Made by a program: the position numbers and the translations under genes. The notes beneath the pieces were generated by a model. That model saw only the letters and a program-made list of their open reading frames with translations, did no database searches and was not told the DNA's origin. Positions 2,827 through 48,702 of a stretch of DNA of 64,000 nucleotides are shown piece after piece. Position 1 is the stretch's first letter. Every line of letters starts with the position of its first letter. The stretch comes from an uncultured Gemmatimonadales bacterium (GTDB lineage Bacteria; Gemmatimonadota; Gemmatimonadetes; Gemmatimonadales; GWC2-71-9), in the NCBI GenBank assembly GCA_963817575.1, contig CAWFOY010000001.1:44548-108547 (forward strand), in the 5' to 3' direction.

Positions 2827-3452
2827 GCCTGTCCTTCGATCCGCGCGATGCGATCCGCCACTTGCGGCGCGCCGATCCCGCCCTGGCGCGAGTCATCCGC
2901 CTGGCGGGCCCTTTCCCGTTGGAACCTGCCCGCCGGATGTCGATCTTCGAGGCCCTGCTCGTGTCGATCGTCCACCAGCAGTTGAGCGGTAAGGCGGCGG
3001 CGACCATCCACGGCCGCGTCGTCGCGCTCTATTCGCCGCGACGCGCCCCGCGGCCCGAGGAGCTGCTCGCCACTGCGGACGAGGAGTTGCGCCGCGCCGG
3101 GCTCTCGCGGAACAAGACGCTCGCGGTGAAAGACCTCGCGGCCAAGTGCGCCTCCGGAGTCGTGCCGAGCATGGCCCAGCTCCGACGGATGCCCGATGAG
3201 ATGGTCGTCGAGCGGCTGACCGCGGTGCGTGGAGTGGGCCGCTGGACGGCGGAGATGGTGCTGATGTTCCGGCTGGTGCGGCCCGACGTCCTGCCGATCG
3301 ATGATCTGGGCATCCGGAAAGGATTCCAGCGGGTGTACGGCCGGCGGCGGCTGCCAACGCCGCTCGCCGTGGCGCGCCACGGGGAGCGGTGGCGCCCTTA
3401 TCGGACCGTGGCGTCCTGGTACTTGTGGCGCTCGCTCGAATCCCCGCCCTGA
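2823..3452 (+). CDS. DNA-3-methyladenine glycosylase II-like HhH-GPD base-excision enzyme
   Basis: 209-aa ORF with an HhH-GPD signature (LTAVRGVGRWTAEMVLMF) and a catalytic Asp context (LPIDDLGIRKG). Its start overlaps the uvrA stop by ATGA. Confidence 0.8.
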   Translation: MSLSFDPRDAIRHLRRADPALARVIRLAGPFPLEPARRMSIFEALLVSIVHQQLSGKAAATIHGRVVALYSPRRAPRPEELLATADEELRRAGLSRNKTLAVKDLAAKCASGVVPSMAQLRRMPDEMVVERLTAVRGVGRWTAEMVLMFRLVRPDVLPIDDLGIRKGFQRVYGRRRLPTPLAVARHGERWRPYRTVASWYLWRSLESPP

Positions 3453-5491: not shown

Positions 5492-5497
5492 GGAGGG

Positions 5498-5503
5498 AAG
5501 ATA
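5498..5503 (-). promoter_or_regulatory. -10-like TANNNT (TATCTT) 6 nt before the antiporter ATG
   Basis: The minus strand reads catctgcc catctgcc cgtctgtc caTATCTTccctccATG. No SD sequence is present. Confidence 0.3.
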
Positions 5504-5504
5504 T

Positions 5505-5536
5505 GGACAGACGGGCAGATGGGCAGATGGGCGGGA
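5505..5536. repeat. Octamer array, about 4 units (GGACAGAC GGGCAGAT GGGCAGAT GGGCGGGA)
   Basis: Read directly from the sequence. It lies between the divergent antiporter and C-N hydrolase genes. Confidence 0.85.
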
Positions 5537-6494: not shown

Positions 6495-7210
6495 ACGCGG
6501 TCGAGGCGCTGCCCGCCGTGGATGTCAGGGTCACGCTGGACTCGGACATCCCGGGCGTCATCGAACTCAGTCGCGACGTATACCCCAGCTCCGCGCCCTG
6601 GGCGGAGAAGCAACTGGCCTCCCATCTCGCCGTGTTCCCGGAGGGGCAGTTTGTCGCCATCGAGCGATCATCCGGTCGGGTGGTCGGCATGGCGGCCAGC
6701 CTCATCGTGCTCTGGGATGATTACGACACGGTAGGTACCTGGCGCGACTTCACCGATGGCGGGTACTTCCGGAACCACGACCCGATGCGGGGGCGGACGC
6801 TCTATGGCGCGGAGGTGATGGTCGCACCGGACATGCAGGGCAAGGGGGTCGGCTCCGCGCTCTACGCAGCCCGTGAGGCGCTCGTGCGCTGGCGGAAACT
6901 GCTCCGGATCCGGGCTGGTGCGCGACTGCGCGGCTATCACCGCGTGGCATCCAGAATGAGTCCGGCGGAGTACGTGACGCGAGTCCTACGGAACGACCTG
7001 ACGGATCCAACGCTCTCGTTCCAGCTGGCCCACGGATTTCGGGTGCTGGCGGTCGTGGCCGGTTACCTGCGCCACGATCCGCAGAGCCTGGGGTTTGCGG
7101 CGGTGATCGAATGGATCAACAAGGAAGTGGCGACGCCCTCGGACTACCAGGCGCACTCGGTGTGGCACAAGACAGCTCCCGAGGAGGGACTCGAACCCCC
7201 GACCCGCTGA
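6491..7210 (+). CDS. GNAT family N-acetyltransferase
   Basis: 239-aa ORF with an acetyl-CoA-binding-type motif (VAPDMQGKGVGSALYAAREALV). Its start overlaps the hydrolase stop by ATGA. The last 35 nt overlap tRNA-Asn on the opposite strand. Confidence 0.75.
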   Translation: MNAVEALPAVDVRVTLDSDIPGVIELSRDVYPSSAPWAEKQLASHLAVFPEGQFVAIERSSGRVVGMAASLIVLWDDYDTVGTWRDFTDGGYFRNHDPMRGRTLYGAEVMVAPDMQGKGVGSALYAAREALVRWRKLLRIRAGARLRGYHRVASRMSPAEYVTRVLRNDLTDPTLSFQLAHGFRVLAVVAGYLRHDPQSLGFAAVIEWINKEVATPSDYQAHSVWHKTAPEEGLEPPTR

Positions 7211-7693: not shown

Positions 7694-8785
7694 ATGACAC
7701 TGAAGCCCCTGGTGGGCCACGCCGACTCCCGGTCCCGTGTATCACGGGCCATCCGAGAAGGCCGGCTTCCCCAGGTGCTGCTGCTGACCGGGCCCGCAGG
7801 CGTCGGGAAGCAACGCCTGGCGCTCTGGATCGCGCAGTTGCTGTACTGCGAGCGGCCCGGCCTGGAGCCGTGCGGGGACTGTCGAGGCTGTCGGCTGGTA
7901 CTGGGGCTCGGGCATCCGGACCTCCATTGGATCGTCCCGATTCCCCGCCCCAAGGCGGCGGAGCCGGACAAGCAGGTCGAGGAGGCGGGCGAGGCCATCG
8001 CGGAAGCGCTGGCGGAGCGGCGGGCAGCGCCGCTGTACTTGCCTCCCGATGGGCTCTCGGCGCACGGGATGGCCACGGCGCGGCTGATCGCGCGACGGGC
8101 TGCCCTCACGCCGGTCGAAGGCAAGCGGAAGGTGTTCGTCATCGGCGAGGCCGAACGGCTCGTTCCGCAGGAGGCGAATCCGGAGGCGGCGAACGCCCTC
8201 CTCAAGCTTCTCGAGGAGCCGCCCGGTGATACGACGTTCGTCCTCACCACTGCGGACCCGGCGCGCGTGCTGCCGACCATCCGGTCTCGCGCGGTGCCGC
8301 TCAGGCTCGGGCGATTGACCGACGCTGAGGTGTCGGGGTTCCTGGCGGCGCACCTGGAGCCGCCACCGCCGCCCGCCGAGTTGGGACGTATCGTGACTCG
8401 GGCGGCCGGCTCCATCGGCGCGGCGCTCACACAGGGAGACGAGGCCCAGGCCGCGCAGGTGGCCGCGAACGCCTATCTGGAGTCGGTGTTGAGCGGACCC
8501 GCCGCGCGATTCGAACGGGCGCTGGCGCAGGGACCTTGGCAGGCGCGGGGTGATTTCACGGGGATGCTCGATGCGCTGGCCGAGACCCTGGACGACGCGG
8601 CTCGCGGTGCGGTGGGAGTCGCCGAGCGGCGCGCGGTCCCGGCGGCGCTCCGGGAGCGCACCTCGCCGGAACGCCTGCTTAAGGCGCTTGGCCTGGTCGC
8701 CGAGGCCCGGGAGGCAGCGCAGGGAAACGTGAACCCGCAGCTGCTGCTGGCGAGTCTGGGCGAGGATCTGGCGGAGGCCCTGTGA
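7694..8785 (+). CDS. holB: DNA polymerase III subunit delta-prime
   Basis: 363-aa ORF with an AAA+ clamp-loader N-terminus ([15 protein letters not shown]). It also has the zinc module CGDCRGC and the SRC-type motif TIRSRAV. Confidence 0.85.
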
Positions 8786-9982: not shown

Positions 9983-10044
9983 CAGATGGGCAGATGGGCA
10001 GATGGGCAGTCGAAGGTGCTGACCGCCTGTCCGACTGTCCGACG
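9983..10044. repeat. Composite repeat: (CAGATGGG)x3 + core TCGAAGGTGCTGAC + (CGCCTGTC/CGACTGTC) array
   Basis: Read directly from the sequence. It lies between the convergent SLT and ctaA genes. The same core follows arrays at 16079-16093 and 22986-22998. Confidence 0.85.
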
Positions 10045-10046
10045 CT

Positions 10047-11111
10047 TCAAGAGACGACGGCTGGCGCCCTGCGCCGGCCGTTCGTCGTTTGGAGCCCGTG
10101 GAGCGCCAGCACCGCGGCCGTGAGCACCAGAACCGCGCCCGCCTGGTGGAGCGCCGCGATGGGAATCGGCACGGCGAGCAGCAGGGTCGTCACGCCCAGG
10201 CCCGCCTGGGCCGCGGCGAGAAGTGCCAGTGCCCCCAGTGCCCGTCGCGTCGACGGGGGGGCGCTCCGCCGCCCACCCGTCCACAGCGCGAAGGCTCCCA
10301 GCAGCACCCCAAGCCCCAGCAGGCGGTGATGGAATTGCACCGCCCCCGGATTCTCGAACAGGTTGAGGTACCACGGGGTGAGCGCCGTGTACCCGGGTGG
10401 AATCACCCGGCCGCCCATCAGAGGGAACGTGTTCCACGCCTTCCCGGCGTCGAGCCCAGCCACGAAGGCACCCGAGAGAACCGTCAGGAACACGTAGAGA
10501 GCGAACCCTGCTACAACGCGGCGCAGCGCAGATTCCGCCTGTCCGCCTGACCGTCCGTCCGCCTGTCCGACGCCAAGCAGATCCGCCGCAGTCCAGACCG
10601 TGATGACGTAGATGACCAGCGCCAGTGCCAGGTGGGCGGCGAGGCGGTACTGGCTCACGTCCGTGCGCACGGTGAGGCCGCTCTCCACCATGTACCACCC
10701 CATCGCGCCCTGCAGCGCGAGCAGGACGAGGAGCAGCGCGAGGCGGCGCGCCAGAGGGCCGCTCACCATCCGCCTGGCAAGGAACGCGAGGAACGGCACC
10801 GCGAAGGCGAGCCCGACCAGCCGCGCCCAGAGCCGATGCACGTACTCGACCAGATAGATGCGCTTGAATCCGGCCAGGGTCATGCCGGGATTGTGAAGCT
10901 GATACTCCGGGATCTGGCGATACCGGGAGAACTCTGCCTCCCAATCAGCGGCGGAGAGGGGCGGAAGCGTTCCGGAGACGGGCTTCCATTCGGTGATGGA
11001 GAGGCCGGATTCCGTGAGTCGGGTGATGCCGCCGATGACGACAGTCAGGAGCACCAGAGCGGCCCAGACAGCGAGCCAGAGGCCGATGGTGCGGCGGTGG
11101 GTGGGATGCAT
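10047..11111 (-). CDS. ctaA: Heme A synthase (COX15/CtaA family)
   Basis: 354-aa polytopic ORF. The N-terminus GGITRLTESGLSITEWKPVSGTLPPLSAADWEAEFSRYRQIPEY is diagnostic of the COX15 type. Confidence 0.9.
   Translation of the reverse strand: MHPTHRRTIGLWLAVWAALVLLTVVIGGITRLTESGLSITEWKPVSGTLPPLSAADWEAEFSRYRQIPEYQLHNPGMTLAGFKRIYLVEYVHRLWARLVGLAFAVPFLAFLARRMVSGPLARRLALLLVLLALQGAMGWYMVESGLTVRTDVSQYRLAAHLALALVIYVITVWTAADLLGVGQADGRSGGQAESALRRVVAGFALYVFLTVLSGAFVAGLDAGKAWNTFPLMGGRVIPPGYTALTPWYLNLFENPGAVQFHHRLLGLGVLLGAFALWTGGRRSAPPSTRRALGALALLAAAQAGLGVTTLLLAVPIPIAALHQAGAVLVLTAAVLALHGLQTTNGRRRAPAVVS
10535..10572. repeat. Octamer array (CCGCCTGT type, about 4.5 units) inside the ctaA CDS
   Basis: The sequence ccgcctgt ccgcctga ccgtccgt ccgcctgt ccgacg encodes the loop GVGQADGRSGGQAE on the minus strand. 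Confidence 0.75.
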
Positions 11112-11116
11112 GCAGG

Positions 11117-11122
11117 AAAATA
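11117..11122 (-). promoter_or_regulatory. -10-like TANNNT (TATTTT) 5 nt before the ctaA ATG
   Basis: The minus strand reads ctgacccg ctgacccg ctgacccg ctg TATTTT cctgc ATG. No SD sequence is present. Confidence 0.3.
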
Positions 11123-11149
11123 CAGCGGGTCAGCGGGTCAGCGGGTCAG
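11123..11149. repeat. Octamer array (CAGCGGGT)x3
   Basis: Read directly from the sequence. There are four GGG tracts on the plus strand, and the array lies immediately upstream of the ctaA start. Confidence 0.85.
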
Positions 11150-14992: not shown

Positions 14993-15853
14993 TCATCCGC
15001 GGGTCAGCGCGTGGAAGCGGGTAATCAGCTCGCGCGTCACCAGACCGACGGGCCCTGCGCCGATGGTCCTTCCATCGAGGCTGCGGATCGGCGCGATCTC
15101 GGCAGCGGTGCCGGTGAAGAAGGCCTCATCGGCGGTGTAGACGTCGTACCGGTTGAGCGGCTCCTCGCGCGCCGGAATCCCGGCCCCTGCCGCCAGCTCG
15201 AGGATGACATCCCGCGTGACGCCCCGGAGAATTCCCGCGTAGGCCGGCGGCGTGCGCAGCTCGCCGCGCTTCACAATGAACAGATTCATTCCGGAGGCCT
15301 CCGCCACGTATCCGGCGCTGTCGAGCATCAGCACCTCGTCCACCTGGGCCTGGATGCCTTCGACCTTGGCCAGGATGTGCGGGAGGTAGTTGAGCGACTT
15401 CACCCGCGGAGACAGGGCCTCGCGATGCGGGATGGGCGTGCCAGCAGTGAGCACGGTGAGGCCCTGTTCGTAGCGCTCCGGCGGCCACAGCGAGATGGAA
15501 TCGAAGATGATGATGACGGTGGGCCGGGCACATTTCCGCGGGTCCAGGCCGAGATCGCCGGCTCCGCGGGTGATGATGTGGCGCAGATAGCCCTCGGCCA
15601 GGTGGCCGCGGCGGACACCCTCCTCCGTCACCCGGATCATCTCATCTTTGGGGAAAGGGACTGTCATCCAGATCGCGTGGGCGGAGTCGTACAGCCGGTC
15701 CACGTGCTCCTCGAGCCGGAAGACCTTTCCGCCGTAGACCCGCATCCCTTCAAACACGCCGTCGCCGTAGAGGAGACCGTGATCGAACACCGACACCTTG
15801 GCCGAGTCGCGGTCGTACCACTGGCCGTCGATCCAGATCAGGGACACGGTCAC
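14993..15853 (-). CDS. ilvE: Branched-chain amino acid aminotransferase (fold type IV PLP enzyme)
   Basis: 286-aa ORF with a GTG start. It carries the motifs HGLLYGDGVFEGMRVY, SPRVKSLNYL and EAFFTGTAAEIAPI. Confidence 0.88.
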   Translation of the reverse strand: MTVSLIWIDGQWYDRDSAKVSVFDHGLLYGDGVFEGMRVYGGKVFRLEEHVDRLYDSAHAIWMTVPFPKDEMIRVTEEGVRRGHLAEGYLRHIITRGAGDLGLDPRKCARPTVIIIFDSISLWPPERYEQGLTVLTAGTPIPHREALSPRVKSLNYLPHILAKVEGIQAQVDEVLMLDSAGYVAEASGMNLFIVKRGELRTPPAYAGILRGVTRDVILELAAGAGIPAREEPLNRYDVYTADEAFFTGTAAEIAPIRSLDGRTIGAGPVGLVTRELITRFHALTRG

Positions 15854-15887: not shown

Positions 15888-15960
<73 letters not shown>

Positions 15961-16000
15961 GAAGCGGAGGAAAGGTTGCATCGGGGGAGGGGGGATTCAA

Positions 16001-16080
16001 GGGCGGATGGGCAGATGGGCAGATGGGCAGATGGGCAGATGGGCAGATGGGCAGATGGGCAGATGGGCAGATGGGCAGCC
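16001..16080. repeat. Octamer array, 10 units (GGGCGGAT, 8x GGGCAGAT, GGGCAGCC)
   Basis: Read directly from the sequence; it contains 8 perfect consecutive copies. It begins 41 nt upstream of the tRNA-Lys 5' end and is followed by the core CGAAGGTACTGAC. Confidence 0.95.
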
Positions 16081-16712: not shown

Positions 16713-16821
16713 CGGGGGACAGGTTAGGAAGTTGGGAAGTCAGGCAGTTGGGATGTCAGGAGGTCGGGAAGCTAGAGGGCAGGTCGTCCCACCTGTCCGC
16801 CTGTCCGCCTGTCTGCCCGCC
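16713..16821. repeat. Two adjacent 8-bp-period arrays (GGGAAGTY-type, then CCTGTCCG x3)
   Basis: The first array is aggttagg aagttggg aagtcagg cagttggg atgtcagg aggtcggg. The second is cctgtccg cctgtccg cctgtctg cccgcc, which abuts the rnhB stop. Confidence 0.8.
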
Positions 16822-17450
16822 TACAGTAATCCCAGCTGAGCTACCGGCCCGAAGCTCCTGCGGTGATGCGGGGTGGGGCCCCGCTCGGCGAGGGCGAGCA
16901 GGTGGCCCTCGCTGCCGTAGCCCTTGTTGGAATCCCAGGCGTAGCCGGGATGGCGGAGCGCGAGGCGCCGCATCAGCCGGTCCCGTACCGTCTTGGCGAT
17001 GATGCCCGCAGCCGAGACGCTCTGGCAGTGGGAATCGCCCTCGACCAGCGCCTCGTGGAGGAAGCCGATTTCCGGCATCTGCAGGCCGTCGAGGAGCAGG
17101 CGGGGAAGCGGGTCAGCGGGACAGCGGGTCAGGATGCGGACAACAGCCCTTCGCATGGCCAGCGCGGTGGCCACCCGGATGTTGAGCCGGTCAATCTCGG
17201 CCACGGAGGCGGCCCCAAGGGCCAACGCCAGTGCCGCCCGGCGGATCGTGACCGCAAGGGCTTCCCGCTGCGGGGCGGAGAGCGTCTTGCTGTCGCGGAG
17301 CCCGGCGAGGCGGTGGGCGCCGGCCGGAAACACGACGGCCGCGGCAACCACTGGACCCGCCAGTGGGCCGCGGCCCGCTTCGTCCACTCCGATGAGCAGC
17401 CGTCCCTCCGCCCAGACGGCCGCCTCACGGGACAGCGTCGGACGGCGCAC
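16821..17450 (-). CDS. rnhB: Ribonuclease HII
   Basis: The motifs IGVDEAGRGPLAGPVVAAAV, DSKTLS and SAAGIIAKTVRD are present. I chose GTG 17450 as the start because the track ORF (16821-18122) runs on through rplS and trmD in another frame. Confidence 0.88.
   Translation of the reverse strand: MRRPTLSREAAVWAEGRLLIGVDEAGRGPLAGPVVAAAVVFPAGAHRLAGLRDSKTLSAPQREALAVTIRRAALALALGAASVAEIDRLNIRVATALAMRRAVVRILTRCPADPLPRLLLDGLQMPEIGFLHEALVEGDSHCQSVSAAGIIAKTVRDRLMRRLALRHPGYAWDSNKGYGSEGHLLALAERGPTPHHRRSFGPVAQLGLL
17107..17133. repeat. Octamer array (AGCGGGTC type, 3 units) inside the rnhB CDS
   Basis: The sequence agcgggtc agcgggac agcgggtc encodes LTRCPADPL on the minus strand. Confidence 0.65.
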
Positions 17451-20738: not shown

Positions 20739-20838
20739 GATGGGCAAGGCAGATGGGCAGATGGGCAGATGGGCAGTGGGCAGATGGGCAGACGGGCAGA
20801 TGGGCAGATGGGCAGATGGGCAGATCGGCGGGTCGGCG
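20739..20838. repeat. Octamer array, about 12 units of GGGCAGAT with one 7-nt unit
   Basis: Read directly from the sequence. It lies between the ffh start and the 3' end of the four-helix-bundle gene. The orientation is G-rich on the plus strand. Confidence 0.95.
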
Positions 20839-21370: not shown

Positions 21371-21409
21371 CCGCCCATCTGCCCATCCGCCCATCCGCCC
21401 ATCTATACT
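21371..21409. repeat. Octamer array (CCGCCCAT/CTGCCCAT x4), inverted relative to 20739-20838
   Basis: Read directly from the sequence. It ends in catcTATACT, 5 nt before ATG 21415. Confidence 0.9.
21404..21409 (+). promoter_or_regulatory. -10-like TATACT 5 nt before the DUF445 gene ATG
   Basis: The context is TATACT-ccgcc-ATG with no SD sequence. This is the closest match to TATAAT among the five cases. Confidence 0.35.
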
Positions 21410-21414
21410 CCGCC

Positions 21415-22977
21415 ATGGATTCTCCCACCCTGATCTCCGCCCTCCTCACCATCGCCGTAGGCGCTGTCGCGGGCGGCATCACGAACGCGGTGGCGATCTG
21501 GATGCTGTTCCATCCCTATGAATTGCGCGGGATCGGGCCGTTCCGGATCCAGGGCGCGATCCCCAAGAACAAGGCGCGGCTGGCCAGGAGCATCGGGAAG
21601 ACCGTTGGAGAGAAGCTCCTCACCGCGGAGGACCTGTCGCGGCGGCTCGCCGCGCCGGAGGTGCGGGCGGGATTCGACGCCGCGCTCTCCGGATTCCTCG
21701 ATGACCTCCTCGAACAGGAGCGCGGCCCCCTCCTCGACCAGCTGCCTCCCGACCTCGCAGCCCAGATCGAGGCCGGAGTGGACCGGCTGGCGGCGCGGGC
21801 AACGGAGCATCTCGCCGAGTACGCCGCCACGCCGGCATTCGCCGCAACGGTCGCAACCTGGCTCGACCGGTTGCGTACGGAGATCGGCGATCGCCCGATC
21901 GGGGAGCTGTTGACGCCGGACCGCCGCGCGTCACTTCAGGCGACGGTGGAGAGCTGGCTGCACGACCTCACCGAGGGGCCGGAGCTGGAAGCGGCGGTTC
22001 GTCATTTTGTCGAGATGCAGCTCGAGCGGCTTGGCAAGGACGATCGCCCGCTGATCGACCGGCTGCCGATCGGGCTGGTGGGCACGGTCGAGCAGTCCAT
22101 CCACGACTACCTGCCGGTGGCGATCGAGCGCATCGGCGCAGTGCTCGCCGATCCCGAGGCCAAGGGGAAGATCCATCAGGCTCTCCGGACCACCTTTGAC
22201 CGCTCCGTCCGCGATTTGCTGCTCCACGAGCGCCTGCTCGCCCGCATCGTGGTGACCGACCAGACCTTCACCCGCCTCCTGGACGGCCTCGAGCGCGAGG
22301 GGTTCGAGCGATTCGCCGAGTCGCTCTCGGCCCCGGACATGCGCGCCCAGTTGACCCGCGCCGTCAACGACGGGCTGGTGCACTTCCTCCGCATTCCGCT
22401 TAGCGAGCGGCTGGCGCGCATGGGTCCCGAGAAGCGCGCCGCCCTGGCCGGCACCCTGGGCGACTGGGGTATCGCGATCGTCCGGGACGAAACGACCCGG
22501 CGGGTCGCCGGCCGCGCGGTGGACCGCCTGCTTGCCGCGACGGAGCGTCGGACGTGGAACGACCTCCTCGGCAACGTGCCGCCGGAGCGCATTGCGAAAC
22601 TCCTCGCCGAGGCGCTCGCCGCGGACCGAGGGCGCCGGTGGGTCGAGGAGGCCGTGCGAAGCACGGCTCACGCGGTGCTCGCGCGCCCGGTCGGGCGTCC
22701 CTCGCGCTGGCTGGGCGCCGAGACGACCGGAGCCGTTCGGACGAGCATCATCCGCGCGGCATGGGAGTGGACCCACCGGCAGATCCCCCGCGTGGTGGAG
22801 CAATTCAACGTACAGGAGATGGTGGAGCACAAGGTGCTTGGCTTCTCCACCGAGCGGATGGAGCAGATCATCCGGGGCGTCACGCAGCGGGAGCTGACGC
22901 TGATCGTGCAGCTGGGGTACGTGCTCGGAGCGATTGTCGGCGTGGTGGCGTTCGGAGTGGGGTTGTTGTTCAGGTAG
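21415..22977 (+). CDS. DUF445 family membrane-anchored protein
   Basis: The N-terminal GGITNAVAIWMLFHP motif and a long helical body are present. I prefer ATG 21415 because the track start at 21238 reads through the repeat array. Confidence 0.75.
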   Translation: MDSPTLISALLTIAVGAVAGGITNAVAIWMLFHPYELRGIGPFRIQGAIPKNKARLARSIGKTVGEKLLTAEDLSRRLAAPEVRAGFDAALSGFLDDLLEQERGPLLDQLPPDLAAQIEAGVDRLAARATEHLAEYAATPAFAATVATWLDRLRTEIGDRPIGELLTPDRRASLQATVESWLHDLTEGPELEAAVRHFVEMQLERLGKDDRPLIDRLPIGLVGTVEQSIHDYLPVAIERIGAVLADPEAKGKIHQALRTTFDRSVRDLLLHERLLARIVVTDQTFTRLLDGLEREGFERFAESLSAPDMRAQLTRAVNDGLVHFLRIPLSERLARMGPEKRAALAGTLGDWGIAIVRDETTRRVAGRAVDRLLAATERRTWNDLLGNVPPERIAKLLAEALAADRGRRWVEEAVRSTAHAVLARPVGRPSRWLGAETTGAVRTSIIRAAWEWTHRQIPRVVEQFNVQEMVEHKVLGFSTERMEQIIRGVTQRELTLIVQLGYVLGAIVGVVAFGVGLLFR

Positions 22978-22985
22978 GATGGCCA

Positions 22986-23014
22986 GCCGAAGCTACTGTC
23001 CGCCTGTCCGCCTC
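22986..23014. repeat. Core GCCGAAGCTACTG + (TCCGCCTG)x2
   Basis: This is the third copy of the conserved core with an attached CGCCTGTC-type array, just after the DUF445 stop. Confidence 0.7.
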
Positions 23015-26942: not shown

Positions 26943-26965
26943 GGGCGCACCGCGGTGCGCCCCTA
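26940..26965. terminator. 26-bp perfect palindrome spanning both convergent stop codons (bidirectional hairpin)
   Basis: The sequence is TAGGGGCGCACCG|CGGTGCGCCCCTA. The thiD TAG and the PNP stop (cta on the plus strand) form the two ends. There is no U-tract. Confidence 0.6.
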
Positions 26966-27802
26966 CGCGCGCGCGACGATCCCTTCGATCAGGTCGCCGA
27001 GCTGGCGTCCCACGCGGTTGGCAATCTCGATGACCTCGCCGTGGTGGAGGGCCTGGGTCGTGACGCCCGCGGCGGGGTTCGTGATGGTCGACACGGCCAG
27101 GCACCTGATGTCGAGCGCACGCGCCACGATCACCTCGGGAACGGTGCTCATCCCAACAGCGTCTGCGCCGAGCCGCTCCAGCATCCGTATCTCCGCCGGG
27201 GTTTCGTAACTCGGCCCCAGCACCGCGGCATAGACGCCCTCCTCGAGCCGGATGCCCAACTCGCCGGCTACGGCCGTCGCGTGCGTGCGCAGCTCCCGAT
27301 CGTACGCGGCGGACATGTCGGGAAACCGTGTCTCGCCCGGGGCAACGGGGCCGATCAGCGGGTTCCGGAACATGAAATTGATGTGATCGGTGATCAGCAT
27401 CAGGGTGCCGGCGGAGAAGGCGCGCCGGATCCCGCCCGCGGCGTTCGTGAGCACGAGGGAGTTCACCCCAATGCGGGCGAAGAGACGCACCGGGAGCGCG
27501 GCTGTCGCCGCGGAATGCCCCTCGTAGAGGTGGAACCTTCCGCTCTGCACCATCACCTCGCGTCCTGCGAGCCGCCCCGCCACCAGCTCCCCCCGATGAC
27601 CTTCCACTGTGGGCAGCGGGAACCCGGGAATCTCGGCGTACGGAATGACCACCGCGCTCTGGATTCTTTCGGTGAAGCGGCCGAGCCCGGACCCGAGCAC
27701 GATCGCGATCTCGGGTTTCCGCCCGCCGAGGCGCTCACGCACCGCCGTCGCGGCCTCGGTGATCGTGCTGCCCATCTGCCCATCCGCCCATCCGGCCGTC
27801 AC
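26963..27802 (-). CDS. Purine nucleoside phosphorylase (trimeric PNP family)
   Basis: The motifs IVLGSGLG, GRFHLYEG, TNAAGG and MSTVPEV are present. The GTG 27802 start overlaps the nupC stop (GTGA). An alternative ATG at 27775 lies inside the octamer array. Confidence 0.9.
   Translation of the reverse strand: MTAGWADGQMGSTITEAATAVRERLGGRKPEIAIVLGSGLGRFTERIQSAVVIPYAEIPGFPLPTVEGHRGELVAGRLAGREVMVQSGRFHLYEGHSAATAALPVRLFARIGVNSLVLTNAAGGIRRAFSAGTLMLITDHINFMFRNPLIGPVAPGETRFPDMSAAYDRELRTHATAVAGELGIRLEEGVYAAVLGPSYETPAEIRMLERLGADAVGMSTVPEVIVARALDIRCLAVSTITNPAAGVTTQALHHGEVIEIANRVGRQLGDLIEGIVARA
27768..27797. repeat. Octamer array (CTGCCCAT/CCGCCCAT) at the 5' end of the PNP gene
   Basis: If GTG 27802 is the start, the array encodes AGWADGQMG of the N-terminus. 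Confidence 0.85.
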
Positions 27803-45202: not shown

Positions 45203-45262
45203 GGTCAGTCGGATGGTCGGTAAGTCGGACGGTCCGACTGCCCGACGGTCCGACGGTCCGTC
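45203..45262. repeat. 8-bp-period array (GGTCAGTC..GGACGGTC..CGACGGTC, about 7 units)
   Basis: Read directly from the sequence. It abuts the ALDH stop codon at 45263-45265. Confidence 0.85.
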
Positions 45263-47665
45263 CTACTCCCCGTACGGGACCCAGATGTTCTTCACTTGCG
45301 TCGCGTGGCGCAGGAATGGCTCACCCTCGCCCCGGTCCGGGTCGTCCCAGGCCACCTGATGCCCGTGGTTGACCCAGGTCTGCTTCAGATTGCCGGCTGA
45401 CAGCTTTTCGACCTGGGTGCTTCCCTCCGCCGTGCCCCAATACCACATCGCATCCACATCGTCGTGGGCGGCCAGCACCGCCGATAGCTCTTCCCGGGGT
45501 CCGGTCACCAGGTTGATCACGCCCCCCGGCAGGTCCGAGGTGTCGAAGACCTGGTAGAGGTCGGTGGCGAGGAGCGGCCACCGGGCGGAGGGAATCGCCA
45601 CCAGGGTGTTGCCCATCGCGACCGGTGGGATCACCGTGGAGAGGAAACCGAGCAGGGGCCAGTCCTCGGGAGCCACGACGCCCATGACGCCCAGGGGTTC
45701 GGGCATCGCGAGCGTGATATTGCGATATGGCGTGTGGTGGACGCGGCCGTCCCACTTGTCGGCCCACGCGGCGTAACTAAACAGGCGCGAGAGCGAGAAC
45801 TCAACTTCCTTCTGCGCATCGGCGTGCGAGCGGCCGGTGAGCGCCTCGAGTCGCGCGGCGAACTCTGCCTGGCGGACGGCGAGGTTTTCGGCGAGATAGT
45901 ACAGCACCTGCGCGCGGTTGTGGGCCGTCGCGCGGGCCCATCCCGCCGCCTTGTGCGCGGCCTCCACGGCGTTCCTGATGTCCTTGCGATTGCCATGCCC
46001 AACTTCGGCGATGAGCCGCCCGCCTGCATCGTGCACCGGCAGGCTGTAGCCGGAATCGGGACGCGCCTGCTTGCCGCCGATGTAAAGCTTGGGAGAGCGG
46101 TCTATCGAGGGATGGGCAGATGGGCGGATGGGCCGTGGGATCACCGCAGCGGCTGCCTGCGCGTACGCCTGAGTTGCCGCCCCGCTGCCCATCTGCCCAT
46201 CCGCCGTGCCGTCCTTCACATACTCCCACAACCCTTCCTTGCCGCCCTCCCGTCCGAATCCGCTCTCGCGGTAGCCGCCGAAGCCCGAGGCGGCGTCGAA
46301 GACGTTCGTGCAATTGATCCAGACCGACCCCGCCTTGATGCGAGGGGCGATGTCGAGTGCGAGGTTGATGTTCTCGGTCCAGACGCTCGCGGCGAGGCCG
46401 TACCTGGTGTTGTTGGCGAGCTCGACCGCCTCATCGGGCGTGCGAAACGTCATCATGACGACGACCGGGCCGAAGATCTCCACCTGCGCGATCGTCGCCG
46501 ACGGGGACACGTCGGTGAAGAGCGTCGGCGGGAAGAAGTAGCCCTCCTTCGGGCAGCTCCACGACGGCTGCCACATCGTGGCGCCTTCGTCCTCGCCCTT
46601 CTGCACCAGCTCGCGGATCTTGTCGAGCTGAACCGGTGCGATGATGGCGCCGATGTCGATCGCCTTGTCGAGCGGGTCGCCCACGCGAAGGGTCTCCATC
46701 CGGGCGCGGAGCCGCGCCACCAGCCGGTCCGCCACGCCCTCCTGGGCCAGGATCCGGGAGCCGGCACAGCAGACCTGCCCCTGATTGAACCAGATCGCAT
46801 CCACGACACCCTCGACCACGCTGTCGAGGTCGGCATCCGAGAAGACGACAAAGGGCGACTTCCCGCCCAGCTCGAGCGACAGCTTCTTGCCGGTGCCGGC
46901 CGTGGTCGCGCGGATGATGCGGCCGACGTCGGTGGATCCGGTGAAGGCGATCTTGTCCACGTCGGGGTGCTTGACGATCGATTCGCCGGTGCGCCCGTCG
47001 CCGGTGAGGATATTCACGACGCCGGGCGGGAGACCGACCTCGTCGCACAACTCGGCGAAGAGCAGCGCCGTCAGGGGTGTGAACTCGGCCGGCTTCAGCA
47101 CGACCGTGTTCCCCATCGCGATGGCCGGCGCGATCTTCCAGGACAGCATCAGGAGCGGGAAGTTCCACGGGATGATCTGCCCGGCCACGCCGACCGGTTC
47201 CATTCCGGGCATCTCACGCTCCATCAGCTGGGCCCAACCCGCATGATGGTAGAAGTGCCGCGCCACCAGCGGCACGTCGATGTCGCGCGATTCGCGGATC
47301 GGCTTCCCGTTGTCCAGCGATTCGAGCACCGCGAGGAGCCGCGTGTGCCGCTGCACGGCGCGCGCGAGGGCGTAGAGATAGCGCGCGCGCCCGTGTCCCC
47401 CGAGAGCGGCCCAGTCCGGCTGGGCCGCTCGGGCCGCTCCGACGGCGCGGTCCACGTCCGCTGCCGACGCCTGCGTCACCTGCGCGAGGACCCGCCCTGT
47501 GCCTGGATTCACGGTGTCGAAGAGCTCGCCGGGCGCAGTCCACTGCCCGCCGATGTAGACGCCGAAGGCCCGGCGGTGGCGGTCGAGCCATTCCTCCGCC
47601 GGCTTCGCCGATTCGGGCGCCGGGCCATATGACATGCTCGCGAAGATCTCGGGTATGGATGCCAT
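45263..47665 (-). CDS. Double-domain aldehyde dehydrogenase: complete ALDH + repeat-derived linker + truncated ALDH-like (NAD-binding half only)
   Basis: The N-terminal ~500 aa carry LELGGKSP and FNQGQVCCAGSR (catalytic Glu and Cys). The C-terminal ~255 aa align to the first half of an ALDH (KLYIGGKQ..AMGNTLV..GVINLVTG) and stop where LELGGK would be. The linker is encoded by octamer arrays. Confidence 0.85.
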   Translation of the reverse strand: MASIPEIFASMSYGPAPESAKPAEEWLDRHRRAFGVYIGGQWTAPGELFDTVNPGTGRVLAQVTQASAADVDRAVGAARAAQPDWAALGGHGRARYLYALARAVQRHTRLLAVLESLDNGKPIRESRDIDVPLVARHFYHHAGWAQLMEREMPGMEPVGVAGQIIPWNFPLLMLSWKIAPAIAMGNTVVLKPAEFTPLTALLFAELCDEVGLPPGVVNILTGDGRTGESIVKHPDVDKIAFTGSTDVGRIIRATTAGTGKKLSLELGGKSPFVVFSDADLDSVVEGVVDAIWFNQGQVCCAGSRILAQEGVADRLVARLRARMETLRVGDPLDKAIDIGAIIAPVQLDKIRELVQKGEDEGATMWQPSWSCPKEGYFFPPTLFTDVSPSATIAQVEIFGPVVVMMTFRTPDEAVELANNTRYGLAASVWTENINLALDIAPRIKAGSVWINCTNVFDAASGFGGYRESGFGREGGKEGLWEYVKDGTADGQMGSGAATQAYAQAAAAVIPRPIRPSAHPSIDRSPKLYIGGKQARPDSGYSLPVHDAGGRLIAEVGHGNRKDIRNAVEAAHKAAGWARATAHNRAQVLYYLAENLAVRQAEFAARLEALTGRSHADAQKEVEFSLSRLFSYAAWADKWDGRVHHTPYRNITLAMPEPLGVMGVVAPEDWPLLGFLSTVIPPVAMGNTLVAIPSARWPLLATDLYQVFDTSDLPGGVINLVTGPREELSAVLAAHDDVDAMWYWGTAEGSTQVEKLSAGNLKQTWVNHGHQVAWDDPDRGEGEPFLRHATQVKNIWVPYGE
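46108..46205. repeat. Inverted pair of octamer arrays inside the ALDH CDS
   Basis: The left arm is gggatgggcagatgggcggatgggc (46108-46133) and the right arm is gctgcccatctgcccatccgcc (46184-46205). Together they are translated as ..ADGQMGSG..IRPSAHPS.. on the minus strand. Confidence 0.9.
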
Positions 47666-47680: not shown

Positions 47681-48685
47681 CTAGGCCATCGGATGCCGGT
47701 GCGCTGCCGAGTACCGCCCCGTCACGAAGTGCTCGAGCTGGCGCTCGATGTCCGTGAGGAGGCTGCTGGCCCCGAACCGGAAGAGCTCGGGCCGGAGCCA
47801 GGCATCGCCCAGCTCCTCCTTGATCAGGGCGAGCCATTCGAGCGAATCCTTCGCGCTGCGGATGCCGCCTGCCGGCTTGAAGCCGACCCGGGTGCCGGTG
47901 CGCTCCAGGTATTCGCGAATGGCGCGGACCATCACGAAGCCGACCGGCAGCGTGGCATTCACGCTCTCCTTGCCGGTGGACGTCTTGATGAAATCGGCGC
48001 CCGCCATCATCGCCACGAGGCTCGCGCGGGCCACGTTCCGGAGCATGCCGAGCTCGCCGGTGCCGAGGATCACCTTGATGTGGGCATCGCCGCATGCCTC
48101 GCGGAACGCCTTCACCTCGTCGTACAGCGCCGGCCAGTCCTCGCACAGCACGTGCGCCCGGGTCACCACGACATCGATTTCATCCGCGCCCGCCTCGATC
48201 GACGCGTGGATCTCCGCCAGGCGCTGCGGGAAGGGTGAGAGCCCCGCGGGGAAGCCGGTGGAGACGGCCGCCACCGGGATCCCGGTTCCCCTGAGCGCCT
48301 CCACCGCCGTCGGGACCATGGCGTGGTAGACGCAAACGGCGGCGGCGCGGATCCCGAGGTGTTCCGCACCGAGCGTTTGCAGCAGGTCCGCCCGCACCGG
48401 CTGACGCGCCTTGGCGCAGAGGCGGCGCACGCGGCCGGGGGTGTCGTCGCCCTGGAGTGTCGTCAGGTCCATCAGGGTCACGGCCCGGAGAAGCCAGGCG
48501 GCCTGCCATTCCTTCTTGACGGTCCGGCGGCGGCCGAGCGTCACGGCCCGCCGCTCGAGTGCGCTCCGGTTGGCGCGCGCCGCGCGGACCCAGCCCAGGT
48601 CCAGCGGCATCCCGGCATTCCGGGGCTGCACCGGGATCGGCAGCTCGGTGGCCGGTGTGCCCGGTCTGGAGGGAATGGAGGCCAT
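47681..48685 (-). CDS. deoC: Deoxyribose-phosphate aldolase (long form)
   Basis: 334 aa counted from ATG 48685. The Schiff-base Lys context FIKTSTGK is present, along with VAAVSTGFPAG and KPAGGIR. The track ORF extends upstream through the rhomboid gene in another frame. Confidence 0.88.
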   Translation of the reverse strand: MASIPSRPGTPATELPIPVQPRNAGMPLDLGWVRAARANRSALERRAVTLGRRRTVKKEWQAAWLLRAVTLMDLTTLQGDDTPGRVRRLCAKARQPVRADLLQTLGAEHLGIRAAAVCVYHAMVPTAVEALRGTGIPVAAVSTGFPAGLSPFPQRLAEIHASIEAGADEIDVVVTRAHVLCEDWPALYDEVKAFREACGDAHIKVILGTGELGMLRNVARASLVAMMAGADFIKTSTGKESVNATLPVGFVMVRAIREYLERTGTRVGFKPAGGIRSAKDSLEWLALIKEELGDAWLRPELFRFGASSLLTDIERQLEHFVTGRYSAAHRHPMA

Positions 48686-48702
48686 GACGATGCTCCAGTA
48701 CG

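Follow-up and report, generated by a model that had tools for sequence, protein, structure and literature searches.

How does the DNA between two protein domains come to look like the DNA between two genes? In the window, a 64,000-nucleotide stretch from an uncultured Gemmatimonadales bacterium, a single ORF encodes two aldehyde dehydrogenase (ALDH)-like modules joined by a linker that is itself encoded by short tandem arrays of an 8-nt unit, arranged in opposite orientations around a spacer. The initial annotation proposed that an intergenic repeat element between two tandem ALDH genes had come to be read through in frame, fusing them. At issue is whether the repeats created the linker or entered one that already existed.

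The ORF encodes a predicted ALDH16-family enzyme

The gene occupies 45263..47665 on the reverse strand (800 aa plus stop in the ORF list), and its product is identical to database protein P0249, encoded on a 158-kb Gemmatimonadales-type contig. Upstream lies deoC, a gene of the deoxyribose-phosphate aldolase family (47681..48700, reverse strand; Pfam DeoC), and the order rhomboid–deoC–ALDH16 with a convergent ppx is kept in relatives, as seen in the gene tables of loci L081, L082, L164 and L165. Module 1 (aa 1–484; 46214..47665, reverse strand), with the C-terminal end ...ESGFGREGGKEGLWEYVK, is a complete aldehyde dehydrogenase, matching Pfam Aldedh over aa 47–484 at profile positions 7–457 of 461 (E = 3.9e-199). 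Its catalytic motifs, with Asn in IPWNFPL, Glu in LELGGKS and Cys in QGQVCCAGS, are aligned with and identical to those of the structurally characterized LsALDH16 (IPWNFPL, LELGGK and QGQVCCAGS), in which the catalytic residues of 6MVR are Asn165, Glu261 and Cys295 (PMC12041015). By this alignment the catalytic residues of the active bacterial ALDH16 type are all retained, and the enzyme is predicted to be active. Module 2 (aa 521–800 plus stop, IDRSPKLYIGG...VPYGE; 45263..46105, reverse strand) is identified by its Pfam and PDB matches as the C-terminal Rossmann-like domain of ALDH16. Against the Aldedh profile, the last 277 aa match positions 15–237 of 461 only, that is, the NAD-binding half without the catalytic Glu/Cys region, as the initial annotation had recognized. 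Module 2 also matches residues 503–766 of 6MVR (E = 1.9e-98) and has at least 600 genomic matches, spread across phyla.

Over its full length, the 800-aa product aligns collinearly with LsALDH16 (phmmer; query 3–799 to residues 3–766 of PDB chain 6MVR_A, E = 1.1e-292). The complete N-terminal ALDH domain, the truncated C-terminal domain (~270 aa) and the full-length similarity to 6MVR indicate that the gene encodes an ordinary bacterial ALDH16 (cd07111), predicted to consist of a catalytic ALDH joined by a flexible tether to a non-catalytic Rossmann-like domain. The solved enzyme, LsALDH16 of the alphaproteobacterium Loktanella sp. (PDB 6MVR–6MVU; Liu & Tanner 2019, as summarized in PMC8160307 and PMC12041015), is likewise built from an ALDH module with the catalytic Asn, Glu and Cys and, beyond an interdomain linker, an NAD-binding-like C-terminal domain without catalytic residues. 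It differs in the linker: that of the window protein is ~20 residues longer and is encoded by inverted octamer arrays, which the LsALDH16 sequence lacks. An AlphaFold 2 model of the 800-aa protein has a mean pLDDT of 70, with much of the catalytic domain and the linker (residues 488–517) below 50; the weakness of the model in large parts of the catalytic domain reflects a shallow alignment.

Inverted octamer arrays encode the interdomain linker

The linker comprises aa 485–520 (DGTADGQMGSGAATQAYAQAAAAVIPRPIRPSAHPS; 46106..46213, reverse strand) and aligns to 6MVR poorly and with gaps. Read in the sense of the gene, it begins with a gene-proximal G-rich arm, 5′ in the mRNA (46179..46205, reverse strand), with the sequence GGCGGATGGGCAGATGGGCAGCGGGGC, which encodes ADGQMGSG. 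A 45-nt spacer (46134..46178, reverse strand), the loop region of the hairpin, encodes the middle of the linker including a semi-conserved AY. The distal C-rich arm, 3′ in the mRNA (46110..46133, reverse strand), reads GCCCATCCGCCCATCTGCCCATCC, encodes PIRPSAHP and adjoins the start of module 2. Tandem Repeats Finder (TRF) detects period 8 at 46111–46133 (GATGGGCA, 2.9 copies) and at 46185–46205 (CTGCCCAT, 2.6 copies), and the inverted repeat joins 46110–46133 to 46179–46202, two 24-nt arms that are 88% complementary with 45 nt between them. The arrays noted in the initial annotation are therefore real, with their limits corrected to those given here; their placement around a spacer was right, but the extents of linker and spacer needed revision. 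The arrays, built on the unit GGGCAGAT, are short and already degenerate, with ~3 units each; ADGQMGSGAATQAYAQAAAAVIPRPIRPSAHPSIDR is an example of a linker peptide.

The pairing of the arms far exceeds that of shuffled sequence. The best-stem score of the window linker is 16, against a shuffled mean of 6.9 and maximum of 9 (100 shuffles, z = 9.3), with shuffling done within linker thirds so that the G-rich and C-rich halves were preserved. Predicted folding energies are −61.8 kcal/mol (z −2.9) for the sense strand and −71.4 kcal/mol (z −3.95) for the antisense strand. A promoter scan of the ALDH16 gene returned nothing within the linker, and the promoter/terminator scan gave no intrinsic (Rho-independent) terminator there, ...CCCTCGATAGACCGC being what comes after the 3′ arm. 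Rfam 15 at gathering score gave no match in the linker; two tRNAs are its only matches in the window.

The fused architecture is widespread and the linker repeats appear lineage-specific

Comparison of orthologues showed the two modules sharing an uninterrupted reading frame in 152 of the 163 loci fetched, from many phyla; of the remaining 11, nine lie on contigs whose start falls at the linker, just before it or within module 2. Fused genes free of repeats occur in Chloroflexota, Bacteroidota, Verrucomicrobiota, Proteobacteria, Acidobacteriota, Myxococcota and others, at least eight phyla besides Gemmatimonadota. By this distribution, the fused ALDH16 architecture is ancient, and the repeats came into an existing linker instead of creating one. 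The protein is not new and there is no gene fusion to explain, which removes the most eye-catching part of the original proposal.

Linker repeats, or a significant linker stem, were found in none of the 47 loci labelled as outside Gemmatimonadota. A significant stem is present in 13 of 31 Gemmatimonadota-labelled genome loci and in 15 of 72 unlabelled metagenome loci, giving 28 related high-GC loci in addition to the window. All share one layout, a G-rich octamer array, a spacer and a complementary C-rich array. Period-8 autocorrelation reaches 0.5–0.64 in repeat-bearing linkers versus 0.2–0.35 elsewhere, and the median linker length is 135 nt with arrays versus 105 nt without. The inverted octamer arrays in the ALDH16 linker thus appear to be specific to a Gemmatimonadales-type lineage. 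Many Gemmatimonadota orthologues have no linker hairpin.

Linker units turn over rapidly while the arms remain complementary

The element is read in frame, its unit varies between genomes with the two arms staying complementary, and its turnover far outpaces that of the domains on either side. Among 29 sequences (the 28 loci and the window) there are 23 distinct modal units, and in 22 of the 29 the 3′ arm unit differs by at most one mismatch from the reverse-complemented 5′ arm unit. The longest stems are 32 of 32 bp (L016) and 32 of 33 bp (L038), and the stems stay significant after shuffling within linker thirds. Predicted folding energies reach −103 kcal/mol in L016 (z −8.0), −92 in L038 (z −7.4) and −113 in L010 (z −9.1). 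In L081, the closest relative (92% protein identity), the arms consist of two unrelated, non-complementary units and there is no excess folding (z +1.6). Linker nucleotide identity to the window is 50% for L081 and 72% for L165, the two modules being 87–90% identical; between the window and L165 the arms are ~85–90% identical and the spacer ~50%. Selection on a sense mRNA hairpin was considered and set aside: the stem mismatches comprise 16 G:T or T:G, 35 A:C or C:A (the antisense type) and 60 other, disruptive pairs, with no enrichment of G–U and, if anything, the opposite.

The initial annotation had pointed out that an 8-nt unit makes the reading frame fragile, and the comparison bears this out. 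Single 90%-identity protein clusters contain several linker types, several lengths and several reading frames of the same units; lengths within clusters differ by 1–10 aa, and change confined to steps of three units was not seen. The third unit of L011 is GGCGGAAA; GGCGGTAA in its place would create an in-frame TAA. In L164, on a single contig, the array contains an in-frame TAG, which leaves two ORFs, of 497 and 310 aa, in place of one gene. Two short module-2-only proteins from long contigs, P0173 and P0174, were examined as natural cases of uncoupling and rejected: their assemblies carry extra frameshifts in the conserved domain 1, which are probably sequencing errors.

Octamer arrays recur in the window and in related genomes

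The linker arrays are of the same kind as the intergenic elements of the window, in agreement with the initial annotation, and their unit is the main intergenic unit as well. The 16-mer GGGCAGATGGGCAGAT occurs 28 times in the window with at most 2 mismatches, against 0.03 expected. Period 8 is the only enriched period in the 64 kb (nine arrays versus none in Markov shuffles), the other periods from 5 to 13 giving at most two arrays each. Octamer arrays lie at 5505, 9983/10019, 11123, 15999, 20748/21371, 27768 and 45203/45234. Two octamer palindromes follow stop codons, one at 9983–10043 and one immediately downstream of the ALDH16 stop codon, between that gene and the convergent ppx (45203..45262; TRF 45203–45234 and 45228–45260). 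The latter is an element of the linker type in its usual intergenic setting. An array at 10534–10569 encodes a loop of ctaA, another tolerated coding site.

Among the other genomes, L035 has intergenic array pairs, and one of its intergenic arrays shares its unit with the L035 linker. In L010, L016, L020 and L038, the two linker arrays are the only period-8 arrays within 6–21 kb. Arrays are thus far more regular in the linker than in the intergenic DNA nearby. That the linker should so often be the sole array site is not what random colonisation predicts, but would be expected of an old resident element or under some selective advantage. Copies of the element differ in spacer and length and have only the unit type in common, with no target-site duplications seen and no element-wide consensus or defined ends among the copies. 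A centre motif, YCGAAGSTR, was tried as a family signature and dropped as weak, with too few cases (three window elements and L016).

Origin and maintenance of the linker repeats

We consider it likely that the lineage's own 8-nt repeat element is an in-frame, tolerated occupant of a pre-existing, unconstrained ALDH16 tether. The tether is the only long part of the ORF almost free of amino-acid constraint. Arrays there would arise and change by processes acting on DNA: slippage within arrays, conversion of one arm by the other, and ectopic conversion by arrays elsewhere in the genome. Purifying selection would act only to keep the frame open and free of stops, so that the modules remain tethered. 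The encoded peptide (ADGQMG... / ...IRPSAHP) would be a by-product, a disordered tether whatever its sequence, and the strong mRNA hairpin probably a tolerated side effect, not a selected feature. Standing against this reading are the regularity with which the linker carries arrays, the better conservation of the arms than of the spacer between the window and L165, and the uniform handedness of the pairs, every one of which has its G-rich arm 5′ and its C-rich arm 3′.

Recent fusion of two tandem ALDH genes, by in-frame read-through of an intergenic octamer element, would fit the local layout, which resembles a spacer between genes of the same direction: module 1 ends naturally and is followed by a G-rich array, and a C-rich array comes before a natural-looking ALDH N-terminus, just as arrays border the ends and starts of genes at other places in the window. 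The initial annotation had itself named repeat-free orthologues with the same fused architecture as the finding that would speak against it, and such orthologues exist in many phyla, with a solved alphaproteobacterial structure among them, so the fusion reading fails. No separate, intact module 2 gene was found either, the short matches examined being contig-end fragments or assemblies with frameshifts in domain 1, and we regard a recent fusion as extremely unlikely. An error of assembly or sequencing in the repetitive stretch has next to no chance of explaining the arrays. They do disturb assemblies, as eight of the 163 contigs start at or just before the linker and some long-read contigs are frameshifted, but an identical database protein exists, the arrays recur, with point differences, in the close relative L165 from a separate JGI sample, and dozens of independent assemblies show the design of G-rich array, spacer and C-rich array. 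Annotators and assemblers of these abundant soil bacteria should be warned of contig breaks and seemingly split ORFs exactly at the ALDH16 linker.

Two further alternatives would give the element a use. A hairpin, in mRNA or DNA, could be maintained as a translational pause that aids co-translational folding, as a site for RNase III or other processing, or as a DNA site for protein binding. The very stable structures predicted inside the ORF (−60 to −113 kcal/mol), the co-variation of the arms across the 23 unit types, the better conservation of arms than of spacer between the window and L165, and the frequency with which the linker is the sole array site in up to ~20 kb are all consistent with such a role. 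We nevertheless think it improbable: G–U wobble on the sense strand is not enriched, L081 does with two unrelated arm units, the hairpin is missing from many Gemmatimonadota orthologues and from all other phyla, and homogenisation of units by slippage and conversion yields complementary arms without selection. Selection on the repeat peptides, Gly/Arg/Asp/Thr-rich on the N-terminal side and Pro/Ser/Arg-rich on the C-terminal side, for a charge pattern or for tether stiffness would fit the greater length of array-bearing linkers and the recurrence of motifs such as ADGRTDG... and ...VRPSARP in many orthologues. This we hold to be very unlikely, because close relatives read the same units in different frames, the peptides are completely different between genomes, and repeat-free linkers of unrelated composition serve all other phyla. 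The 8-nt period, which is no multiple of 3, also points to an origin at the DNA level and against peptide selection.

More boldly, and with more doubt than confidence, one may suppose that Gemmatimonadales-type genomes carry an active, previously undescribed repeat-writing process. Such a process would place handed inverted pairs of 8-nt-unit arrays in any unconstrained DNA, reaching as far as the borders of constrained sequence, whether at the ends or starts of genes or at domain boundaries inside ORFs, and would exchange one unit family for another in less time than proteins take to diverge by 10%. In that case the ALDH16 linker would be a conserved site of landing or maintenance, and a hairpin of about −100 kcal/mol could also act on the mRNA, through pausing or processing between the modules. 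The writing could conceivably proceed by repeated target-site duplication, through a mobile element so far unrecognised, or by extension of the two ends of a break, each copied from the same short template.

The locus is a natural experiment in which the tether of a conserved enzyme has been rewritten repeatedly by non-triplet 8-nt repeats with strong hairpins, although dozens of lineages have kept the frame open. Repeats that are selfish or driven by mutation can, as it shows, penetrate this far into coding DNA.

Relation to known repeat systems

Several known repeats resemble the octamer elements in part. REPs are single conserved palindromes of 20–40 nt that share a consensus within each family, such as GTAG or CGTC heads, and are linked to RAYT transposases. 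Like REP/BIME sequences, the window arrays form GC-rich hairpins at gene ends in intergenic DNA; unlike them, they are tandem octamers with variable units. Short tandemly repeated repetitive (STRR) arrays are dispersed and intergenic, have a very short unit (period 7) that falls into several families in each genome, and are not known to have a function. The octamer arrays are also dispersed and mostly intergenic, with several unit families and a unit length that is not a multiple of 3, but their period is 8 and the phylum another, which makes STRR an analogy and not a class to which they belong. To our knowledge, STRR have not been described as systematic inverted G-to-C pairs or as coding sequence of enzyme linkers. 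The STRR heptamer arrays of heterocystous cyanobacteria were reportedly described by Mazel et al. in 1990.

Closest in behaviour are the Rickettsia palindromic elements (RPEs), of which the linker element may be seen as a tandem-array analogue. Both are multi-copy, hairpin-forming, lineage-specific repeats that sit in frame at a permissive site inside a conserved enzyme gene and add a peptide segment. RPEs are fixed elements of ~150 bp with a conserved peptide per family (original report from 2000, as summarized in PMC10969869), whereas the ALDH16-linker copies have an unconserved peptide and a unit that changes between genomes and share only a design, tandem 8-nt units in two inverted arrays. 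Terminal inverted repeats of the RPE kind were not seen in the linker elements. Of the features that mark MITE- or RPE-type elements, the octamer elements thus show multiple copies, a hairpin and an in-frame position in an uninterrupted ORF, and lack a consensus, defined ends and duplications.

The literature searched contained no earlier description of octamer arrays in Gemmatimonadota, and the linker is a ready marker for the origin and turnover of this repeat class. The one related report concerns Geobacter metallireducens, in which three to four tandem 8-nt units (GTTGCTYN; TCTCCGTS[Y]) form opposite-strand pairs at variable distance at dozens of genome sites; they were described as 'predicted global regulator binding sites', some with IS elements at a fixed distance, and were not reported inside ORFs (PMC2700814). 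The Geobacter sites differ from the Gemmatimonadales-type elements in phylum and units, are shorter and have a proposed role in protein binding, but they share with them the pairing of inverted tandem octamers.

The gene encodes an ALDH16 enzyme whose fusion is ancient

The gene at 45263-47665 on the minus strand, preceded by a deoC gene (Pfam), is a single open reading frame of 800 aa that contains the linker region. Pfam places a complete Aldedh domain at aa 47-484, and the last 277 aa match only positions 15-237 of the 461-position Aldedh profile, the NAD-binding half, which bears out the truncated second module of the initial annotation. A search of solved structures returned a collinear full-length match of aa 3-799 to PDB entries 6MVR, 6MVS, 6MVT and 6MVU (E=1.1e-292), the ALDH16 of Loktanella sp.; the C-terminal module alone matched PDB residues 503-766 with E=1.9e-98. 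ALDH16 proteins carry, behind the ALDH, a non-functional C-terminal domain that resembles a cofactor-binding domain and through which an unusual dimer forms; they are catalytically active in bacteria and a pseudoenzyme in vertebrates (ALDH16A1) (PMC8160307, PMC12041015). In the alignment to the solved ALDH16, the window protein keeps the catalytic Asn, Glu and Cys motifs. Every defining feature tested was present, and the 'double ALDH' is an ALDH16 member of known architecture.

The distribution of this architecture bears on its age. A species-representative genome set contains at least 600 matches to the C-terminal module, and the best 80 of them span Gemmatimonadota, Chloroflexota, Bacteroidota, Verrucomicrobiota, Proteobacteria, Acidobacteriota, Myxococcota, SAR324 and Herpetosiphon. 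Two collection scans yielded 163 ALDH16 loci, in which module borders were set by motif (G[RK]EGGxEG...[YW] for the end of module 1, [IVL][DN][RK][TS]x[KR]x[YF] for the start of module 2). The two borders lie in one frame with no intervening stop in 152 of them; the remaining 11 comprise eight contigs starting at or just before the linker, one starting inside module 2, one frameshifted long-read contig and one motif variant. Linkers range from 26 to 88 aa and are unalignable across phyla. Outside Gemmatimonadota they display no period-8 signal (autocorrelation 0.2-0.35) and no arrays, and above-chance linker stems occur at 0 of 47 loci. The initial annotation had proposed that an intergenic octamer element, read through in frame, fused two tandem ALDH genes. 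Fused architecture without the repeat is common in other phyla, and because the same fusion stands in repeat-free orthologues, that model is refuted on the annotation's own terms; its fusion mechanism falls, and its identification of the element and of the truncated module stands.

The linker is encoded by octamer arrays of a kind that recurs in the window

Read in gene sense, the linker DNA is ...GAGTATGTGAAG GAC GGC ACG GCGGATGGGCAGATGGGCAGCGGGGC, followed by 45 nt and then GCCCATCCGCCCATCTGCCCATCC CTC GAT AGA.... Tandem Repeats Finder places period-8 arrays at 46111-46133 and 46185-46205, and a repeat search places inverted arms of 24 nt, 88% complementary with 45 nt between them, at 46110-46133 and 46179-46202. 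The stem scores 16, against a mean of 6.9 and a maximum of 9 in 100 separate shuffles of the linker thirds. The repeat finder, arm search and shuffle test thus agree on the inverted octamer arrays described initially.

The linker unit, GGGCAGAT, is the most frequent of several octamer units in the window, where its two-unit 16-mer occurs 28 times (at most two mismatches) against 0.03 expected. Only period 8 is enriched in the window, with nine arrays totalling 338 nt and none in Markov shuffles. Unit families comprise GGGCAGAT, GGACAGNC, CAGCGGGT, GGGAAGTY and GGTCGGAC. An SLT-domain gene and ctaA converge, and an array follows each of their stops (9983-10009 and 10019-10043); others lie upstream of ctaA (11123-11149), stand on either side of the divergent ffh/DUF445 spacer (20748-20838 and 21371-21403) and, at 27768-27794, separate the PNP gene from that of the nucleoside transporter. 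About 40 nt upstream of tRNA-Lys(TTT), at 15999-16078, is the longest perfect array (9.8 units of GGGCAGAT); a palindrome built of octamers directly follows the ALDH16 stop (45203-45262), and further period-8 arrays occur at 5505-5532, 16726-16817, 17107-17132 and 22996-23013. In all nine elements with an assignable neighbouring gene, the G-rich strand reads away from that gene, and paired arrays always have the G-rich arm first. A second coding array, of GGACAGGC/GGACGGAC units at 10534-10569 in ctaA/COX15 (10047-11111, minus strand), encodes the loop GVGQADGRSGGQAES that joins the two four-helix halves of CtaA/COX15. The proposal that linker and intergenic arrays are the same kind of element is borne out by their common unit GGGCAGAT, and the linker element is one case of a genome-wide repeat class in weakly constrained DNA.

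Linker arrays recur in part of the Gemmatimonadota

The top 120 homologues are all 789-835 aa long and 72-92% identical, and many of their linker peptides resemble translated arrays, with ...ADGRTDGRTDGRADRRTGG... towards the N-terminus and ...VRPSDRPTARPSDRL... towards the C-terminus. Significant linker stems occur at 13 of the 31 genome loci labelled Gemmatimonadota and at 15 of the 72 metagenome loci; with the window this gives 29 sequences, all of high GC content (0.63-0.73). All share one layout, in which a G-rich octamer array lies immediately after ...EY[VL]K and is separated by 15-99 nt of spacer from a C-rich array that stops a few bases short of ...IDRT. The G-rich arm is 5' and the C-rich arm 3' in every pair, a handedness that is identical on both strands and hence independent of insertion orientation. 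The units themselves differ, with 23 distinct modal units among the 29 sequences (for example GGGCGGAC, GGTCGGAC, GGCGGTAA, GGGAAGAC, GGGGCAGC, GGAAGGAC and GGGATGGA), and the arms co-vary: in 22 of 29, the 3' unit differs by at most one base from the reverse-complemented 5' unit. Stems reach 32/32 bp (L016), 32/33 (L038) and 33/35 (L010); with z up to 19, they stand well above shuffles in which the G-rich and C-rich composition of the two halves is kept. Fourteen of the 31 Gemmatimonadota loci have a linker without an array, and some others have one array only. Median linker length is 135 nt with arrays versus 105 nt without, a tether ~10 aa longer.

At one locus, L035, a GGGAAGAC-type array also lies inside ALDH16 module 2 (8495-8533), in the variable segment after ...EFAxRL, and the unit is common to this array, the locus's own linker and an intergenic array at 15797-15847; the module 2 segment is a further permissive coding site. 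Separately, the eight contigs with a start at or shortly before the linker (L021, L036, L084, L086, L094, L097, L130 and L145), like the many proteins of about 280-320 aa that databases list as 'partial' and that start at the same place, are cases in which arrays appear to break short-read assemblies.

Linker arrays turn over within an open reading frame

Database protein P0249 and the window protein are identical, and four linker types occur inside the 90%-identity cluster to which the window protein belongs. P0246 (locus L165) carries the window's arrays with point changes, its linker having 72% nucleotide identity against 87-90% for the domains; within the linker, identity is about 85-90% in the arms and about 50% in the spacer. 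In P0001 (L081), which has 92% protein identity to the window, linker identity falls to 50%: the 5' arm consists of GTTGGGAA/GTCAGGAC units and the 3' arm of GACCCGCC-like units, the arms are not mutually complementary, and both unit types are also present as intergenic arrays in the window. Other clusters have linkers of 49-60 aa or 46-56 aa, with length differences that are not multiples of 8 aa and similar units translated in different frames.

Frame maintenance is visible in L011, where the third unit is GGCGGAAA and GGCGGTAA at that position would give an in-frame TAA. In L164 (JGI contig Ga0643825_0001737, 2940-2975), GGCGGTTA replaces GGCGGTCA and creates an in-frame TAG in the 5' array, splitting ALDH16 into same-frame open reading frames of 497 and 310 aa; either a genuine nonsense allele or an error of sequencing may account for this. 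Other split-looking genes come from assemblies that have extra frameshifts inside domain 1, and are probably errors.

The palindrome is probably a tolerated repeat

ALDH16 is ancient, and we consider it probable that its unconstrained tether became host, in Gemmatimonadales-type bacteria, to that lineage's own octamer-array palindrome. Linker DNA would then change by array dynamics, through slippage, unit replacement and conversion between arms or with other arrays; selection would keep only an open, stop-free frame, and the protein would gain an arbitrary disordered tether, ~10 aa longer on average.

The main alternative, that the hairpin is functional, seems unlikely to us. It draws on the predicted mRNA folds, which reach -103 (L016, z -8.0), -92 (L038, z -7.4) and -113 kcal/mol (L010, z -9.1), with -61.8 kcal/mol (z -2.9) for the window sense strand and z near 0 for linkers without repeats; a hairpin of about -100 kcal/mol within an open reading frame would be unlikely to lack any effect. 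The linker is also often the sole place with an array in up to about 20 kb, and in the comparison of the window with L165 the arms are better conserved than the spacer. Against a functional hairpin, the 111 mismatched positions in the 29 stems comprise 16 G:T or T:G (wobble in mRNA), 35 A:C or C:A (wobble in antisense only) and 60 disruptive pairs, and this spectrum gives no support for a selected sense-mRNA stem. Other facts argue against a need for pairing: the L081 arms are non-complementary, some linkers within Gemmatimonadota have no array or a single one, and arrays are missing from the linkers of all other phyla sampled. What the data establish is that the protein belongs to ALDH16, that its fusion is old, that the linker arrays are restricted to one lineage, co-vary between arms and turn over, and that they have intergenic counterparts; the mutational mechanisms and the neutrality of the hairpin are inferred.

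The antisense strand of window 46097-46216 folds better than the sense strand (-71.4 versus -61.8 kcal/mol). Mismatches are biased, with a 5'-arm A opposite a 3'-arm C in 31 cases versus 11 G:T, so an antisense transcript would retain wobble pairs; the A:C excess may come from selection on the amino acids that the 5' arm encodes, as in a change of CGG to CAG.

Comparison with known repeat systems

Cyanobacterial STRR, which are heptamer arrays, are an analogue of the element. The paired inverted tandem-octanucleotide sites of Geobacter metallireducens are an analogue of the linker element (PMC2700814). Rickettsia palindromic elements are in-frame, hairpin-forming, multi-copy repeats at permissive sites (PMC10969869), and the linker element resembles these and intragenic MITEs in all four respects. 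Unlike them, it has no element-wide consensus and no defined ends, and its encoded peptide is not conserved, which sets it apart from such families. No description of Gemmatimonadota octamer arrays was found in the literature searched, the coverage of which was incomplete, and an in-frame repeat element that consists of tandem arrays with a non-triplet unit and sits in a known protein family is, as far as we found, undescribed. The protein is ordinary; the unexpected part is the biology of the repeat, which recurs in a single linker in dozens of lineages.

Inverted octamer pairs or long arrays also adjoin ALDH16 loci of low-GC Bacteroidota and other phyla: L042 (Saprospiraceae) at 3630-3766, L107 at 3431-3644, L157 at 1739-2030, L041 at 10834-10867 and L076 at 6714-6803, with units such as ATTGTTTC...GAAACAAT and ACGCAAAG...CTTTGCGT. 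These flanks and the Geobacter report (PMC2700814) suggest that the inverted-octamer design may extend beyond Gemmatimonadota.

Sequences adjoining the window arrays

A short centre, YCGAAGSTR (TCGAAGGTG, CCGAAGGTA, CCGAAGCTA), lies between a G-rich array and its C-rich partner at window 10010, 16079 and 22986 (intergenic) and at L016 9923 (ALDH16 linker); with three window elements and L016, the cases are too few for a family signature. On the minus strand at ~16820-16855, GGGCCGGTAGCTCAGCTGGGA resembles a tRNA 5' acceptor and D-arm and continues into the array at 16789-16817. Neither ARAGORN nor Rfam calls a tRNA there, and the stretch may be a fragment left by an integration event. A promoter-like pair, TTGAAT...AACCTT, lies between the 15999-16078 array and tRNA-Lys(TTT) (window 15888-16078).

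C-rich arrays (gene sense) at 21371-21417 (+), 11109-11149 (-) and 5489-5532 (-) run directly into -10-like TAnnnT hexamers (TATACT, TATTTT and TATCTT), and the ATG comes 5-6 nt after the hexamer. These sites look like candidate leaderless-mRNA promoters, with the array at the -35 and upstream position. The array at 27768-27794 begins 5 nt past the stop of the upstream nucleoside transporter gene and contains the start codon, ATG, of the minus-strand purine nucleoside phosphorylase gene at 26963-27775, whose extended frame reads ...GWADGQ-M-GS; the peptide ADGQMGS is also found in the ALDH16 linker.
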